28,675 nucleotides of DNA, taken from assembly GCA_918234285.1 (NCBI GenBank), contig CAKJXZ020000069.1, forward strand, positions 1-28,675, in the 5' to 3' direction. The notes under the pieces are model-generated. The model did not search any database. It had not been told where the DNA came from and saw only the letters and a list, made by a program, of their open reading frames with translations. Below are positions 338 to 9,781 of this stretch, one piece after another. The translations under genes were made by a program, and so were the position numbers. Numbering within the stretch: position 1 is the first letter of the stretch; the number at the start of each line of letters is the position of its first letter. This DNA is from Pseudomonadota bacterium (lineage in GTDB: Bacteria > Pseudomonadota > Alphaproteobacteria > RF32 > CAG-239).

Positions 338-1084
338 ATGGTATCCGTGTCACTTAAACAACTTAAAGCAATATTAAACAATGATAAATATCTTCCGTAT
401 GAACAAGACGGCAAGACCTATAATCTTTATGATATGCCCGATGGGTTTGTAATAAAGGGTAATGTGGACTTAAGGGATAAAGGACTTACCGAATTACCTG
501 ATTTATCGAAAGTGATTGTTGAAGGATGTTTTGAGTGTCAGCGCAACAGACTTATTTCTTTGAAAGGCGCACCGCAAAAAGTAACAGGATTCTTTGATTG
601 CCATGAGAATAGTCTTGTATCATTGGAGGGAGCGCCTAAAGAAGTGGGAGAAAACTTCTACTGTTATCAGAATCATTTGGCAACAATGGAGGGAGCTCCA
701 CAAGTAATAGGCGGGGATTTTAATTGTGATTACAATAAGTTAAGTTCATTAAAAGGCGCACCGCAAAAAGTCGGGGGAGAGTTTAATTGTTCCCATAATC
801 CTTGGTTGGAGTCACTTTACGGAATATCGGCAATACCGGTCGGCGGAAAAATATATTGTAACGATGAATTGGGAGAAAAATACGGATTTTCTGATTCGCA
901 AAGTAAGGGTTTTGTTTATGAAGACTTAATTAAAAGTCAGGTTTATAAAAACGAGGTACTTATTGATGATATTATCCGTAAAAAACATACTAAAGAGCAT
1001 GAAGATGTAAAAACGCAAAATCATACTCAATTTAAGGCCGGATATGCGGCGTTTAAGAAAAAACAGGCCGAGGAACGGGAATAG
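338..1084 (+). CDS. 21-aa LRR family protein (5 repeats)
   Basis: Start moved from 188 to ATG 338 behind GGAGG (328-332). N-cap EQDGKTYNLYDMPDGFVIKG, repeats of type xxVGGxFxCxxNxLTSLxGAP, tail EERE. Confidence 0.9.
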   Translation: MVSVSLKQLKAILNNDKYLPYEQDGKTYNLYDMPDGFVIKGNVDLRDKGLTELPDLSKVIVEGCFECQRNRLISLKGAPQKVTGFFDCHENSLVSLEGAPKEVGENFYCYQNHLATMEGAPQVIGGDFNCDYNKLSSLKGAPQKVGGEFNCSHNPWLESLYGISAIPVGGKIYCNDELGEKYGFSDSQSKGFVYEDLIKSQVYKNEVLIDDIIRKKHTKEHEDVKTQNHTQFKAGYAAFKKKQAEERE

Positions 1085-1094
1085 GGGAATAGCC

Positions 1095-1979
1095 ATGGCA
1101 AGACGCTTGGAATATGTGCAGGACGGAAAAACCTATAACCTTTACGATTTACCCGACGGATTCGTAATCAATGGTAATCTGGATTTGCGCGACAGGGGTT
1201 TGACCGAATTGCCCGATTTATCCAAGGTTGTTGTTAAAGGGTTTTTTGATTGCAGCGAAAACAAATTGACTTCTTTAAAAGGGGCACCTAAGGAAGTGGA
1301 GGGACATTTTGATTGCCGGCGTAATCAACTGACTTCTCTGCAGGGAGCATCGCGAAAAGTCGGCGGAAATTTCAGGTGTAGCAATAATGAGCTTACAACG
1401 CTTGAAGGAGCGCCTATAGAAGTCGGTATGGGTTTTCATTGTCACCATAATAAATTGACTACGCTCAAAGGGGTGCCGCAAGCGCTCAGCGACGATTTTG
1501 ATTGCAGCAACAATAACCTTACTTCGCTACGGTGGCTGCCTAAGGAAATCGGCGGCTGGCTTATGTGCAGCGATAATAAGCTGACGGATTTGGAAGGTTC
1601 GCCGCAAACGTTGGGCGGAGGTATGGATTGCAGCTATAACGAGCTCACTTCTTTGGCCGGAGCGCCGCAAAAAACGGGCGGAAACTTTGTTTGCAGCCAT
1701 AATAAGTTGGAATCGCTTTTCGGTGTGCCGGAGATTCCGGATATGTGTGTTTTTCATTGTGATATTGAAGTGGGAGAGAAATACGGATTGGATGAAATTC
1801 CTTTCGGAGTTCAGCTTTGCCAACTTACCCGGAGTCCGCTTTATAAAAGTGAGCTGTCCGCCTATAAAATTCGGCAGAAAAAACACGAGGAACGGGAAAA
1901 GAAAGATGCCGAGACCAAGGCTAAGAATAAAGCCGGATTTGCCGCGTTTAAGAAACAAAAATACGAAGAACGGGAATAA
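1095..1979 (+). CDS. 21-aa LRR family protein (8 repeats)
   Basis: Start moved to ATG 1095 (MARRLEY) behind AGGGG. Same N-cap, repeats and tail. Confidence 0.9.
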   Translation: MARRLEYVQDGKTYNLYDLPDGFVINGNLDLRDRGLTELPDLSKVVVKGFFDCSENKLTSLKGAPKEVEGHFDCRRNQLTSLQGASRKVGGNFRCSNNELTTLEGAPIEVGMGFHCHHNKLTTLKGVPQALSDDFDCSNNNLTSLRWLPKEIGGWLMCSDNKLTDLEGSPQTLGGGMDCSYNELTSLAGAPQKTGGNFVCSHNKLESLFGVPEIPDMCVFHCDIEVGEKYGLDEIPFGVQLCQLTRSPLYKSELSAYKIRQKKHEEREKKDAETKAKNKAGFAAFKKQKYEERE

Positions 1980-5938: not shown

Positions 5939-6838
5939 ATGAAAAAGTTGGTTTTGATTTTAGGACTTTGTTTGAGTTTTGGCGCAAATGCTCGGGCGGA
6001 AGATAATAGTTTTAAGGATTGTGATTTCATTATATATAACAAATGTATTTCTTGCAACACACCTTATGCTTTTGAAGTGGGATATGATGTGAATTGCACG
6101 TCGGTATGTCCTAACCGAGATGTTTTGCATGAGGGTAGCGGTTATTACTCTCGGAAGTTCTGTTTTTTGAAACAATGCCCTGATGATAAACCATATCGCC
6201 ACAGCGATGGCTCATGTTACGAAGATGAAAATCGCGTTCCGAGATGGGATAACGCGTACAAAGGTTTTTATGATATGTTTTCTGATGATAATATTGAAAG
6301 ACAGATACATATTTTGGCGGGCGATAATAATCAATGTTCGCCGAGTGAGCCATTATTTTATGAAAATGAGTGTTTTTCTTGTAATGAAACCCAAAACATT
6401 CCAATTTCAGAAACTGAATGCCGTAAATGTTCAAATCGTCAATACATCTATTCTAAACAATGGAATCGTGGAGAGTGTGTTTTACCGTGTCCGCCCGATA
6501 AACCTTTGAAACGTTGGGATGGAAAATGTTTTTCGTGTGATGAAAAGAAGGTTGTTCCTCTTGAAACATGGTGTAATTTTGATGTTGATTGTGATGTATG
6601 CCCGAACAGAACCATCCTTTATGCAATAGGCGGTAACATTCCGAGTATTCTTAACTGTCCGCTCGATAAACCGCTAATGGACGCTCATGGAACTTGCTAT
6701 TCATGCGAAACCGAACAATACGTTGATGTCAGATGGAATAGTGATTCATGCAACAAAATCTGCCCCAATCGCTATTTAGACACCACCAATGACAGTTGTA
6801 TTCTAAATGGAATGAAATTTAAACCAAATGAAAAATAA
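5939..6838 (+). CDS. Secreted cysteine-rich repeat protein, candidate immunity protein for the convergent lysozyme-like cassette
   Basis: Signal peptide MKKLVLILGLCLSFGANARA. About four repeats of CPxDKPL..G.CxSC...CxxCPNR. AT-rich. The immunity role is inference. Confidence 0.75.
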   Translation: MKKLVLILGLCLSFGANARAEDNSFKDCDFIIYNKCISCNTPYAFEVGYDVNCTSVCPNRDVLHEGSGYYSRKFCFLKQCPDDKPYRHSDGSCYEDENRVPRWDNAYKGFYDMFSDDNIERQIHILAGDNNQCSPSEPLFYENECFSCNETQNIPISETECRKCSNRQYIYSKQWNRGECVLPCPPDKPLKRWDGKCFSCDEKKVVPLETWCNFDVDCDVCPNRTILYAIGGNIPSILNCPLDKPLMDAHGTCYSCETEQYVDVRWNSDSCNKICPNRYLDTTNDSCILNGMKFKPNEK

Positions 6839-6876: not shown

Positions 6877-8046
6877 TTATCTATAAAATTTTCCTTTCAT
6901 ACACATATCAGAAACCCATTGGTTACGCCTCTTTATATCATCACGCCTTTTATCAAGGCGGTGTAGGTTGTCGCAATAATCCCTTTTATTCATTTTTTCG
7001 GCTGCTCTTTTAGCTAGCATCCAACTATCCTTCGGTTCCATATTTCCGGTAAAATGTACATCCATTGTTGCGGCTTGCATCTCCGGTGACATATATAACC
7101 AATTAGTAATGACTTTATTTAGAGTATTCCAACGAGACTCAATATCCTCATTATACAAATCGCTACAATATTCTTGCGGCAATCTTGCATTTGTTTCGGT
7201 TGCATATAATTCTGGCTTAAAATTCGTTGGTAAACTTTTTAACTTTTTTTCTGCTGACAACATTTGCGATTTACTTAGTGATTGTCCGCTCGTTACATCA
7301 ATCCAAGGATGTGTATTGAAGTCATTTTTCATATTATGACCTATACAACCTGTAATATCCCCATTGATATCAGGATAAGGAAATACCATTCCATTATCAT
7401 CAATGGTTCTTTCATATCCCTCTTGTAGAATATGAAAATTACGGAGTTGATTATATGCATCAGATTGAACAAATTGATCGTATGTAGTTTTTTCTACATT
7501 TGGATAACTTGAAACATTAGTATGTACCATATTTTGCCCGAGTGAAGTCGGGGCGATGTATTGAGGTAATAGCGATGCCAGATAACGATTTATCGGCTCC
7601 ATAATCGGTGAAGATGTCGTGTTTGGAGCGATGTTTGCGCTTTGGTTGGTCGGTTGTGAGGCAAAAGCAGATGGGGTTTGTATCTGATACCCCGTCGCCT
7701 TTGACGCACCATATATCGGCGATGATGTATATGCACTTTGCACTTCAAGCGATGTCGTATTCGGCGCGGTAATCGCACCGGCGACGTTTTCTATTGCTCT
7801 GCCCGTAGCACTGCCAGAAGTGTTGTTATTCTGAAAATAACTGCTCGGTTTGCCGACCAAACTTTCGGTGTTGGCTGTATAATCGGAATTTGCAGTGACT
7901 TGCCCGTTATTTGTGTTGTTATTAAGCCGATTTGTTACGTTTTCGATATTTTGCTTAATGTTTGAAGTGCCGAAGCCGTAGTTATTTTCAGGTGAGCCGC
8001 CCCAAAAGTTTGTGCCGAACTGCGGATAGTCTCCACCTTGCAACAA
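6877..8046 (-). CDS. Start-less (probably silent) toxin cassette with a C-terminal T4-type (GH24-like) lysozyme domain
   Basis: Begins with a copy of an internal segment of 8471-9781, followed by an S/T/N-rich linker. Motif EG...PYPDINGDITGCIGH resembles the E...Y-x-D-x-x-G-x-x-T-x-G-x-GH signature of phage lysozymes. TTG start has no SD. Confidence 0.7.
   Translation of the reverse strand: MLQGGDYPQFGTNFWGGSPENNYGFGTSNIKQNIENVTNRLNNNTNNGQVTANSDYTANTESLVGKPSSYFQNNNTSGSATGRAIENVAGAITAPNTTSLEVQSAYTSSPIYGASKATGYQIQTPSAFASQPTNQSANIAPNTTSSPIMEPINRYLASLLPQYIAPTSLGQNMVHTNVSSYPNVEKTTYDQFVQSDAYNQLRNFHILQEGYERTIDDNGMVFPYPDINGDITGCIGHNMKNDFNTHPWIDVTSGQSLSKSQMLSAEKKLKSLPTNFKPELYATETNARLPQEYCSDLYNEDIESRWNTLNKVITNWLYMSPEMQAATMDVHFTGNMEPKDSWMLAKRAAEKMNKRDYCDNLHRLDKRRDDIKRRNQWVSDMCMKGKFYR
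7822..8030. repeat. Direct repeat, copy B (partner 9350-9597)
   Basis: 7919-8030 matches 9486-9597 except for a few mismatches in one cluster. 7822-7921 matches about 9350-9450 more loosely. Confidence 0.95.
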
Positions 8047-8086
8047 AACTTAAAGTATATATTCTAAATATTTTTCAATTTATATA

Positions 8087-8114
8087 TTGACAATTACTTA
8101 AAATATGTTATATT
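8087..8114 (+). promoter_or_regulatory. Sigma70-like promoter for candidate ncRNA2
   Basis: TTGACA-16 nt-TATATT with extended TG. Palindrome TACCTTAAGGTA at 8120-8131, near the expected +1. Confidence 0.65.
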
Positions 8115-8119
8115 TAAAA

Positions 8120-8242
8120 TACCTTAAGGTACTTTCACTTGTAGGAACGAAATATTTGATCGCCTACCTTGTATCCTTGGTCGAGAACCAGCTCTGTCAA
8201 GGGATTGAAAGAGTAAGAGCCCTCGTTGAGGGCACTTTTCTA
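8120..8242 (+). ncRNA. Candidate structured small RNA (ncRNA2), convergent with the toxin stub
   Basis: Outer stem CTTTCA(8132-37)/TGAAAG(8206-11) encloses GTAGG/CCTAC and ATCC-TTGG/TCAA-GGAT hairpins. Terminator GCCCTC-GTT-GAGGGC-ACTTTTCT. No credible ORF. Confidence 0.6.
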
Positions 8243-8244
8243 TT

Positions 8245-8361
8245 TTACCGGTCAATATAGTACATTGTTGAAATAATATTTTCGTCATTCTTAGGAGAGG
8301 TTACTACTCTAAATGGTCCGTTTTTACTCCGCGCCAAATAAACGTTTTGACCTATTGACAT
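8245..8361 (-). pseudogene. 38-codon C-terminal stub of a displaced toxin domain (not in the ORF track)
   Basis: MSIGQNVYLARSKNGPFRVVTSPKNDENIISTMYYIDR*. Three short predicted beta-strands, like the end of the 8471-9781 protein. No SD, and its ATG overlaps the -35 box of the ncRNA1 promoter. Confidence 0.5.
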
Positions 8362-8383
8362 ACATTTCAATTTCAATTAGTAT
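8355..8383 (+). promoter_or_regulatory. Sigma70-like promoter for candidate ncRNA1
   Basis: TTGACA-17 nt-TAGTAT. Confidence 0.65.
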
Positions 8384-8389
8384 AACAAT

Positions 8390-8480
8390 GTCAGATGGCA
8401 GTAAATCGTCCAGCGCTGCGGAGCGGGTATATTTACCTTTATCGATGAGGGAGGTGGGCGTCCCTCCTGACTATTTATTT
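8390..8480 (+). ncRNA. Candidate pseudoknotted small RNA (ncRNA1), convergent with the full-length toxin gene
   Basis: Stems GTCAG/CTGAC (8390-94/8467-71), GTAAAT/ATTTAC, CGCT-GCGG-AGCG and GAGGGA/TCCCTC. Loop TGGGCG (8455-60) can pair with CGTCCA (8407-12). GC-rich island in AT-rich DNA. Confidence 0.6.
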
Positions 8481-9781
8481 CCAAATAATGTTCTATATAA
8501 ATCATCAAGTTTTATTTGATAATCGCTTTTTATCACATTTTGATTCGGTTTGGATGGATTTACACTAACAAATCCTATATCAAGTTTATTCCCCGATGAA
8601 TTTATAACAGCTTGATTTTGGTTGTATTTTGTGCGAAAAATCACCGAATTTGGACTATAAATAGCACGATCAATCGAATCTGCCAATTCTTCTGGTGTCA
8701 TTCCATCACTTATAATCCTTTTTTCATATAATTTTTTGACAACATTTGCAGGAATATACATACGATTATTCTTCATGGTAGGTTGATTTAGATTCTGCCA
8801 GTTATCATTTAAAGTATCTTTGAACTCATTCGATATATTTCTGTATCTTATATCTCTAAAATTATTGCCATTTGTTAGTTGGTTAATTAAATTTTTACGG
8901 CCATTTTTTGCAACATATCTATCCAATCCGGCACTTGCCAATGCACCGCCGGTTAGAGCACTTCTGCTATATCCGACTAACTGTCCGGCTGTCTGCGCCG
9001 CTTCACGCTCTTGCGGGGTTTTCAGTTGCAAATAATCGTTCATCTGTGTATCGTAACCGAGCTTATTGCCGAGGTAATCTAACCCACCGAAGGTCATACC
9101 GTTAACCGTCCGATTCATCCCGTATAAAGCATCCATACCGTACATTAAAATTTGATTTACCGCATTACGCTGCGCTTGCAAAATTTGCGCTTGTTTTTGT
9201 GCTTCTGCAGAATTATATCCGCCGGCATTTTGAATTTCGGATGAATTACCGGATTGAACCGGGTTGTTAATGCCGCTGGTGTTGCTACTCAAAGCGCTTG
9301 TAACGTTATTCTCCCAACTGCCGGTACTGTTATTCGCCACGCCGGCAGAGTTGTTATTCTGGAAATAACTGCTCGGTTTGCCGATTAAGCTTTCGGTGTT
9401 GACTGTATAGTTTGAATTTGCAAAAACTTGACCGTTATTTGTGTTGTTATTAAATCCGTTATTTGTGCCGCCACTAAAACCGCCATTATTAAGCCGATTT
9501 GTTACGTTTTCGATATTTTGCTTAATGTTTGAAGTGCCGAAGCCGTAGTTATTTTCCGGCGTTCCGCCCCAAAAGTTTGTGCCGAACTGCGGATAGTTTT
9601 CTTCGGCTATCCCTTGCTTGGCAAAACCTTCTGCCAATTGATTTTCTCTTGCCAACCGCGCACTTTGATATTCCAACTCATCACGCGTTGAAAATCCGCT
9701 GTGGTCAACACCATAGCTATCCACCCCGCCGCGACCGGATTGATAGCCCGCCAATGTTTTTATTTCGTCCCAAATATCCAT
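8471..9781 (-). CDS. Putative polymorphic toxin: conserved N-terminus, N/G/S-rich linker, variable C-terminal domain (possibly a BECR-fold RNase)
   Basis: Strong RBS AAGGAGG. Modular composition, with an AT-rich 3' end. No signal peptide. The fold guess rests on the helix-helix-multi-strand pattern KRIISDGMTPEELADSIDRAIYSP...IGFVSV...NVIKSDY only. Confidence 0.65.
   Translation of the reverse strand: MDIWDEIKTLAGYQSGRGGVDSYGVDHSGFSTRDELEYQSARLARENQLAEGFAKQGIAEENYPQFGTNFWGGTPENNYGFGTSNIKQNIENVTNRLNNGGFSGGTNNGFNNNTNNGQVFANSNYTVNTESLIGKPSSYFQNNNSAGVANNSTGSWENNVTSALSSNTSGINNPVQSGNSSEIQNAGGYNSAEAQKQAQILQAQRNAVNQILMYGMDALYGMNRTVNGMTFGGLDYLGNKLGYDTQMNDYLQLKTPQEREAAQTAGQLVGYSRSALTGGALASAGLDRYVAKNGRKNLINQLTNGNNFRDIRYRNISNEFKDTLNDNWQNLNQPTMKNNRMYIPANVVKKLYEKRIISDGMTPEELADSIDRAIYSPNSVIFRTKYNQNQAVINSSGNKLDIGFVSVNPSKPNQNVIKSDYQIKLDDLYRTLFGNK
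9350..9597. repeat. Direct repeat, copy A (partner 7822-8030)
   Basis: Encodes YPQFGTNFWGG...KPSSYFQNNN and carries a 39-nt insertion (GGFSGGTNNGFNN) relative to copy B. Confidence 0.95.

Follow-up and report, generated by a model that had tools for sequence, protein, structure and literature searches.

What does a conserved, folded RNA do when its gene runs toward the 3′ end of a gene for a putative RNase toxin? The question is raised by a 28,675-nucleotide (nt) contig of an alphaproteobacterial genome (CAKJXZ020000069.1, assembly GCA_918234285.1; "the window" below means this whole stretch), which carries on its + strand an 82-nt RNA gene convergent to P0002, a - strand gene for a polymorphic-toxin-like protein whose C-terminal domain, here CT1, is modelled as an RNase. 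The RNA has a multi-stem fold that is conserved in its relatives, is encoded opposite the toxin gene, and is linked to the toxin domain. We propose, at a probability of roughly 0.35, that it is the antitoxin or immunity factor of this cassette and neutralizes the CT1 RNase domain as a folded RNA. In the mechanism that we envisage, the RNA would be made from its own promoter and fold as a four-way junction of the helices P1, Ha, P2′, and P4, with the loops of Ha and P4 able to kiss in this copy; its family would travel with the CT1 tip in the polymorphic-toxin loci of one rumen Alphaproteobacteria genus and take the position and orientation given to a protein immunity gene in sister cassettes; and the folded RNA would bind and block the RNase domain, as type III antitoxin RNAs do, protecting the producer as well as cells that retain an orphan copy. 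To our knowledge, RNA antitoxins acting on proteins come only from three type III families of fixed gene layout. If the proposal is true, the polymorphic-toxin and RNA-antitoxin fields would meet in an RNA that fills the immunity slot beside an exported RNase toxin, a new fold would be added to the protein-inhibiting RNAs, and genome screens for immunity open reading frames (ORFs) would be missing part of the picture.

The likeness among copies of the RNA starts exactly at position 8390 in three different upstream contexts (the window; the genome G016 together with the metagenome contig L073; and a contig of the public DNA run X6), which argues for sharp unit edges. As the original prediction stated, P1 begins about 7 nt after the -10-like hexamer, i.e., at the seventh base past 8383 with six bases between, and the distance from the -35 hexamer to the RNA start is kept within 1 nt in G016 and L073, where the spacer has diverged. 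In an eight-sequence structural alignment, 8 cells hold G-U pairs versus 0 with A-C, which favors the + strand and bears out the predicted agreement with the promoter direction. At the 3′ side, a hairpin with a T-rich tail was called at 8449-8468; the tail is weaker in G016 and stronger in unit U1 of the G068/G012 relatives and in group B (both described below). The RNA unit is single: a tandem-repeat search with TRF on positions 7900-8700 returned just one 6-nt, 2.5-copy repeat, which lies in the promoter spacer. The RNA is probably transcribed as a discrete + strand unit from its own predicted promoter. Features and coordinates are collected in Table 1.

The claim that the RNA is neither a tRNA nor a riboswitch withstood the searches. 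ARAGORN found 0 tRNA genes in the window, and Rfam gave 0 matches over the whole window at gathering thresholds; at an E value (E) of up to 10, it gave six matches, none credible and none to a tRNA model, the best scoring 24.1 bits versus a cutoff of 65. The Rfam check recommended with the prediction therefore matched the RNA to no family, and on the related loci there was nothing beyond a chance CsrC match (E = 0.069). On the comparative evidence presented next, the RNA is a genuine new small-RNA family outside Rfam.

Table 1. Coordinates of the RNA gene, its helices, the adjoining genes, and related units (positions are those of the window unless a contig is named)
Feature	Position	Strand	Basis and remarks
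Promoter-like site	8355..8383	+	-35 at 8355-8360, 17-nt spacer, -10 at 8378-8383; 10/12 consensus positions, sigma-70-like
Small RNA body, 82 nt	8390..8471	+	Four-way junction closed by P1; minimum free energy (MFE) fold, covariance models, relatives
P1, 5 bp	8390-8394/8467-8471	+	Both sides changed in 3/5 pairs (8 sequences); 97.5% of cells paired
Hairpin Ha, 12-nt loop 8403-8414	8398-8402/8415-8419	+	MFE; replaces earlier P2/P3; 90.6% of cells paired
Variable hairpin P2′, 4-nt loop	8425-8429/8434-8438	+	5/5 pairs change on both sides (8 sequences); 100% of cells paired
Hairpin P4, loop 8453-8460	8447-8452/8461-8466	+	2/6 pairs change on both sides; 95.3% of cells paired
Kissing-loop contact, Ha loop with P4 loop	8407-8412 with 8455-8460	+	6 bp, one U-G; duplex -9.2 kcal/mol
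T-rich tail after P1, possible terminator tail	8472..8480	+	Overlaps last codons of toxin gene
P0002, polymorphic-toxin-like protein, 436 aa	8471..9781	-	Stop codon 8471-8473 overlaps last base of P1
CT1, C-terminal 151 residues (286-436) of P0002	8474-8926	-	Modelled RelE/colicin D/CdiA-CT-like RNase
P0002 shared N-terminal region, residues 1-285	8927-9781	-	No Pfam family
CT2 remnant, last ~35 codons	8254..8358	-	E = 7.1e-7, 54% identity to residues 123-157 of G016 CT2
ncRNA-A unit	8087..8245	+	Promoter 8087-8114, RNA ~8115-8245, terminator hairpin 8219-8233 with T run
P0001, second cassette of same toxin family	6877..8046	-	N-terminal region common with P0002 from ~residue 60; C terminus differs
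P0003, Cys-rich repeat protein	5939..6838	+	Signal-peptide-like start (by eye); no Pfam family above cutoff
G068 units, contig L088 (G068:C12:34600-35120)	34-108, 196-268, 338-416	-	Covariance model
Group-B copies inside long frames	L107 (G035:C7) 1501-1573; L066 (G019:C45) 1895-1967	-	Covariance model
ncRNA-A in other contigs	L079 1996-2354; L080 1986-2167; L086 1300-1482; L082 489-582 and 1375-1468

Fold of the RNA and its relatives

The RNA had been predicted to fold into a compact pseudoknot of four stems, of which the outer two have stood and the inner two have been replaced. The segments of P1 (GTCAG/CTGAC) and P4 (GAGGGA/TCCCTC) are present, and both helices are kept in relatives with changes on both sides, P4 directly abutting the 3′ arm of P1. 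The segments of the proposed P2 (GTAAAT/ATTTAC, 8401-8406/8431-8436) and P3 (CGCT/AGCG, 8414-8417/8422-8425) are likewise present in the window, but these helices are broken or absent in the G016 and G068 units, and the nested model that contains them reaches -21.2 kcal/mol versus -26.7 for the MFE fold, in which Ha and P2′ occupy the center instead. The multi-stem fold as such was therefore right, its central part was not, and a pseudoknot is a feature of the window/G016 type rather than a defining one.

Taken as a single sequence, the RNA folds hardly beyond chance, and it is the comparison with relatives that decides for the multi-stem fold. The shuffled controls suggested with the prediction gave a nested MFE on the + strand of -27.9 kcal/mol (z = -0.92), matched or bettered by 35 of 200 shuffles, and in a second run -26.7 kcal/mol, with 56 of 300 as good. 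When the best loop-loop duplex is added, the total of -34.6 kcal/mol (z = -2.25) is attained by 9 of 300 shuffles, so that the kissing contact is marginal by this measure. The - strand folds at -24.3 kcal/mol (z = -2.34; 2 of 200 shuffles as good). The predicted 6-bp pairing CGTCCA/TGGGCG that makes up the contact is present in the window, and its U-G pair, which would be a C-A mismatch on the - strand, is valid on the + strand only. The pairing is invariant in the window and G016; judged by eye, one G068 unit may have it, with three G-U pairs, whereas neither the other G068 unit (U3) nor group B shows it clearly.

A DNA similarity search recovered the unit in 2 of 50 genus genomes (the window's own and G016, at 93% identity), the remaining matches listed being of 15 to 28 nt and at chance level (E = 0.03 to 0.9). 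The copy on L073 is identical to that of G016, and further copies lie on assembled contigs of four public DNA runs; among the sequencing runs listed as containing the stretch, none was of RNA. A first metagenome scan with the single CT1 protein gave 600 pattern matches and 0 relatives, its peptide words being such as would have missed the G016 homolog; repeated with a CT1 alignment, it gave one locus. A scan of genome contigs returned only the two genomes already known. Exact patterns of 19 and 21 nt had 2 and 0 matches in viral contigs, both of them chance matches in GC-rich coding DNA.

Between the window and G016, 76 of the 82 bases are identical, and all six changes fall within 8427-8439; outside the variable hairpin, 0 of 69 bases have changed. 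The adjoining toxin coding DNA retains 138 of 168 identical positions (18% differing), third codon positions accounting for 22 of the 30 changes, and the DNA upstream of the RNA retains 31 of 43, with 28 gap columns. At the divergence of the coding region, a run of 69 unchanged bases has a crude probability of ~1e-6. The changes in G016 keep P2′ (G-C to A-U at 8427/8436 and G-U to G-C at 8425/8438) and weaken the earlier P2. A contig of run X5 (8319-8476) joins the window-type upstream region and promoter to a G016-like hairpin with a 1-nt deletion; it is a single contig at a depth of 2.4, suggestive of recombination inside the RNA gene or of mixed strains.

Covariance models extended the family. 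The first, built from the window and G016 copies alone, was run unfiltered over 11,544 bases in the surroundings of distant CT1 relatives; the top match (17.1 bits, E = 0.0012), with the four helices aligned end to end, was a unit in G068 that adjoins a CT1 relative of 29% identity, and the next-best match (9.7 bits) lay elsewhere. Once widened with this unit, the model recovered a second G068 unit (E = 6.8e-4 in 833 bases) and, over the 50 genus genomes, a truncated array of the G068 type in G012 (E = 2.3e-7). In 41 genus genomes, a four-sequence model further detected G033:C97 (E = 1.3e-5) and a set termed group B (G016:C10, G002:C140, and G035:C7; E = 2.2e-4 to 0.018). The model R3 found nothing credible outside the genus in 151 genomes of the class; apart from the window's own genome, it gave one match, at E = 0.0026 in a GC-rich coding region, which was taken as chance. 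The R3 matches in G009, G023, and G036 fell inside ordinary genes, which by eye we take to be those for ribosomal protein S7 and PriA, and were dropped before alignment A13 was made.

P1, P2′, and P4 covary among these relatives; Ha is conserved in sequence, with one pair compensated, in G033. In the four-sequence alignment, pairing holds in 97.5% of cells, and 9 of 21 pairs show two-sided changes; in the eight-sequence alignment, the figures are 96.1% and 11 of 20, versus 24 to 48% of cells in slid controls. These counts lean toward structure because the alignments were fitted to the model that selected their members.

The relatives differ in arrangement. In G068, where the array occurs twice through a 2.65-kb duplication, and in G012, two four-way-junction units flank a middle segment; the middle G068 unit, at only 6.3 bits, was rejected as a family member, and the segment has a different fold and its own promoter-like site. 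The G068 units lie up to ~400 nt past the toxin stop codon. Copies without an intact toxin occur at G012:C19, beside an ORF for a small membrane protein, at G033:C97, and at G016:C10 and G002:C140, where the RNA persists with just the last 43 codons of the toxin. The group-B copy in G019 scores only 9.5 bits, with P2′ and P4 kept by changes on both sides. In the group-B copies of G035 and G019, the hairpin pairs are compensated although the amino acids on the other strand change; an RNA gene antisense within a coding tail would be unusual. Most members also show a similar short purine-rich motif on the junction strands leading into Ha and P4 (8395-8398 and 8443-8449; columns 5-13 and 92-100 of A13), which may mark a symmetric junction or a protein-binding site; to us, it recalls a C box or a hammerhead core, a passing resemblance without Rfam support.

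The toxin domain and its partner slot

P0002 has 274 relatives at an E value of 0.001 or better. Those listed have 20 to 40% of the query in common with it at the N terminus and carry varied C-terminal Pfam domains (e.g., PF05838, Glyco_hydro_108), of which several other accessions presumably denote cell-wall enzymes. Because the N terminus is common and the C-terminal domains are diverse, the family is, on present sequence data, one of polymorphic toxins. No signal peptide was seen by eye in the N-terminal region; Pfam has no family for P0002 (E up to 0.01) or for CT1 alone (E up to 10), and PADLOC assigned 0 families to four proteins.

CT1 has 104 remote relatives, some of them parts of very long multidomain proteins with LPD38 or InPase domains. 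Polyvalent proteins bearing RNase domains are a known class. A structure model of CT1 (predicted local distance difference test [pLDDT] score of 94.5) was compared with known structures by VIA-align, and its 19 best neighbors, at Z scores of 6.1 to 4.0, are all, by title, RNase-type toxins of contact-dependent inhibition (CDI), colicin, or toxin-antitoxin systems. The top five are 5i4q_A (Z = 6.1), 7m5f_C (5.4), 7vmc_B (5.1), 3u97_A (5.1), and 5znm_B (4.9), and the neighbors include the CdiA-CT of Escherichia coli NC101 (Z = 6.1), two other CdiA-CTs, BrnT, colicin D, ParE, YoeB, RelE, and YafQ. A Foldseek search of CT1 against the Protein Data Bank gave no match at an E value of 0.001 or better and only weak rows (BrnT, probability of 0.84).

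The position of the RNA with respect to this domain is what suggests a partner. From the CT1 stop codon (8471) up to the next element there is no ORF; the RNA gene stands there. CT1 itself (in the window, G016, and L073) and the 29%-identical domain in G068 are alike followed by the RNA. The sister domain CT1b (~33% identical to CT1; G026 and G006) is followed instead by a convergent ORF of 214 aa without a Pfam family, of which no homolog was found in the window's own genome (100% complete). The neighboring cassette P0001 is likewise followed by a convergent gene, P0003, which ends 38 bases away and has the slot and orientation of the small RNA; P0001 and P0003 are probably a cell-wall toxin and its periplasmic immunity protein. 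Overall, the genomic case for a toxin-linked RNA partner appears good. On the - strand, no terminator-like T run follows the toxin stop codon, so that the toxin mRNA probably runs through the complement of the RNA.

What the RNA may do

From this linkage, we infer that the RNA may neutralize CT1. That it does so by binding the protein directly, rather than by antisense action, is speculative, and several observations lean that way: the sequence is conserved far beyond what antisense pairing needs; the fold is closed by its own ends; the relatives, and a parallel RNA family in the genus, ncRNA-A (see below), form arrays as type III antitoxins do; orphan copies exist, as with orphan immunity genes; and an exported toxin must be neutralized as a protein.

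The original prediction had pointed to type III antitoxin RNAs, a reasonable lead insofar as the RNA is the convergent neighbor of an RNase-like domain. As in ToxIN, CptIN, and TenpIN, a tightly folded noncoding RNA lies beside an endoribonuclease-like toxin gene; the G068/G012 relatives and the ncRNA-A family are arrayed under one promoter and one terminator; and the proposed mechanism, a folded RNA binding an RNase, is the same. According to the available part of PMC3401426, type III antitoxins consist of repeats (36 nt in ToxI) that lie upstream of the toxin on the same strand, with a terminator between them. In contrast, the present RNA is a single 82-nt unit, downstream of its toxin and convergent to it, and the toxin is the CT1 tip of a 436-aa polymorphic toxin that has no Pfam or PADLOC match and hence none to ToxN/AbiQ, CptN, or TenpN. 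Our reading is that the RNA would work most like a type III antitoxin, yet it lacks three defining features of that class, the repeats, the upstream same-strand place, and the toxin family, and membership in it is accordingly not supported.

The toxin side of the cassette resembles the polymorphic toxins that have BECR RNase tips (CdiA-CT/CdiI, colicin D/ImmD, and YxiD/YxxD, as far as the available parts of PMC5737660 and PMC9071432 describe them), in which a conserved N terminus bears swappable tips, a partner gene comes right after each toxin tip, and displaced or orphan modules lie downstream. In the present locus, no protein gene follows CT1, a structured RNA being in that slot, and the partners are convergent rather than codirectional. 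A limited full-text literature search for an RNA immunity factor of polymorphic toxins found none on the subject by title and the start of the abstract. We know of no described polymorphic toxin system in which the immunity factor is other than a protein.

Several points weigh against the proposal. Toxicity, export, and RNase activity of P0002 are predictions, and the structural Z scores of 4 to 6 are modest. A gene for an immunity protein could lie at another place in the genome. Across the RNA family, the kissing pair is not conserved, the T tail is poor in G016, and the independent sequences are few, amounting to two close types and about six diverged ones. The four-sequence covariance model also matched inside ordinary genes at E = 0.008 to 0.08 per genome, and since comparable scores occur there, group B and the weaker members rest partly on context. 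In G035 and G019, the group-B element runs antisense within long open frames that hold the CT1-like domain internally, a placement that does not look like an immunity slot. Finally, every toxin-linked copy of the RNA is antisense to the 3′ end of the toxin gene.

This last point belongs to an unlikely though substantial alternative, that the RNA acts in cis as type I antitoxins do, pairing with the 3′ end or 3′ untranslated region of the toxin mRNA and lowering toxin synthesis, e.g., by duplex-dependent decay, with the protein untouched. In the window, the stop codon and last codons of the toxin are overlapped, the group-B RNA lies wholly inside the toxin coding tail, and the probable readthrough of the toxin mRNA would supply the complement. 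Known Bacillus pairs overlap at their 3′ ends, and yonT/SR6 and bsrG/SR4 of Bacillus subtilis, as given in the available part of PMC5848175, resemble our locus in having an RNA of ~100 nt with its own promoter directed toward the toxin gene. However, complementarity in cis needs no conservation of sequence, yet 69 of 69 bases are invariant at 18% coding divergence, and a junction that the two RNA ends close, and whose helices are compensated, suggests that the fold itself has a function; a closed four-way junction conserved beyond complementarity and the orphan and arrayed copies are unlike type I. Antisense pairing also leaves unexplained the G068 units that lie up to ~400 nt beyond the toxin stop and the copies that have no toxin, and it could give no protection against toxin delivered by neighboring cells. 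Type I toxins are, in the available part of PMC3401426, small, mostly hydrophobic peptides of <60 aa; P0002 is a large multidomain protein with an enzyme-like domain. Were antisense action nonetheless true, type I-like control would be extended to large enzymatic effectors.

Rather improbable, in our estimate, is that the RNA is a cassette element without a neutralizing role, i.e., a bidirectional terminator or insulator, a stabilizer of the toxin mRNA 3′ end, or a boundary for cassette exchange. It does sit exactly at cassette borders, where in two loci it has outlasted all but the last 43 toxin codons; its - strand also folds well; and the run X5 contig suggests recombination at this place. 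The promoter, conserved and placed to start transcription at P1, and the G-U pairs that favor the + strand speak for a transcribed RNA instead; a plain terminator needs no four-way junction with invariant loops, and no integrase or recombinase was noticed among the listed ORFs of the window, part of which were scanned with Pfam.

We give poor odds to the idea that the RNA is a cofactor, substrate mimic, or guide needed by the RNase toxin for activation, targeting, or packaging rather than its inhibitor. The linkage to CT1 would be the same as for an immunity factor, and among the closest folds are CDI tRNases that depend on host factors, e.g., EF-Tu (PMC5737660 and PMC9071432, available in part). 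In our reading, the order of helices also recalls a tRNA, with a closing stem followed by three hairpins, the last abutting the 3′ strand of the closing stem and the loops of the first and third in contact. The closing stem, though, is of 5 bp and the loop of the middle hairpin of 4 nt; neither ARAGORN nor Rfam recognized conserved tRNA positions or a tRNA-like gene; copies without a toxin fit a protective factor better; and nothing examined speaks for activation. Least probable of all is that segments of a spacer are complementary by chance or that the stretch encodes a 17-residue peptide (ATG at 8395), readings for which one could cite the nested fold energy, no better than that of shuffles, and a 17-codon frame open in the window and G016 alike, and against which stand the conservation and compensated helices, a frame not kept in relatives (three of eight members have no AUG at all), the absence, by eye, of a Shine-Dalgarno-like sequence before the ATG in the window, and the run X5 variant, weak as the evidence of one low-depth contig is, in which the hairpin is kept and the frame broken.

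A second RNA family and the neighboring genes

Between the RNA and P0001 lies a second RNA unit, ncRNA-A, which is unrelated to the first. Its family consists of ~90-nt units in arrays of one to four between one promoter and one terminator, an arrangement reminiscent of type III antitoxin arrays. Eleven units yield a three-helix consensus, namely, a closing stem with one strongly conserved and one variable hairpin; of its 20 RNAalifold pairs, 12 are compensated, and Rfam has no match for the family. The toxin tip that goes with ncRNA-A, CT2, was detected 12 times in 10 of 50 genus genomes, and convergent ncRNA-A units (one to four) accompany it at 7 of the 12 places by a pattern that missed at least one diverged unit, in G016, with 0 on the toxin's own strand. 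The structure model of CT2 (pLDDT of 49.2) is too poor for a structure search. In the window, a CT2 remnant lies between the two RNA units, for which reason the spacer may be read as the remains of a displaced cassette whose RNA partner has survived. A wider and more tentative conjecture is that structured RNAs serve as immunity factors of RNase-type polymorphic toxins, possibly through mimicry of their RNA substrates (e.g., tRNA), with the four-way-junction RNA for CT1 and ncRNA-A for CT2 having been independently recruited in one genus and orphan copies protecting against neighbors.

The 82-nt RNA lies between the - strand genes P0002 and P0001, neither of which has a Pfam family. P0001 starts within the shared N-terminal region without an obvious ribosome-binding site, and it may be an orphan cassette; its C terminus has a weak Phage_lysozyme match (E = 0.063), below the cutoff, and P0029 is a homolog of it. 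On L073 (445-660, -), the RNA is preceded on its own strand by an intact gene that has its own terminator and encodes a 71-aa protein with an HTH_17 domain of the excisionase type. This gene is decayed in G016 (L029, about 1340-1430) and absent in the window, and hence it is no obligatory partner of the RNA. The window itself is chromosomal, the locus being flanked by genes for GyrA, endonuclease I, ThiF, RNase HII, and HydF.

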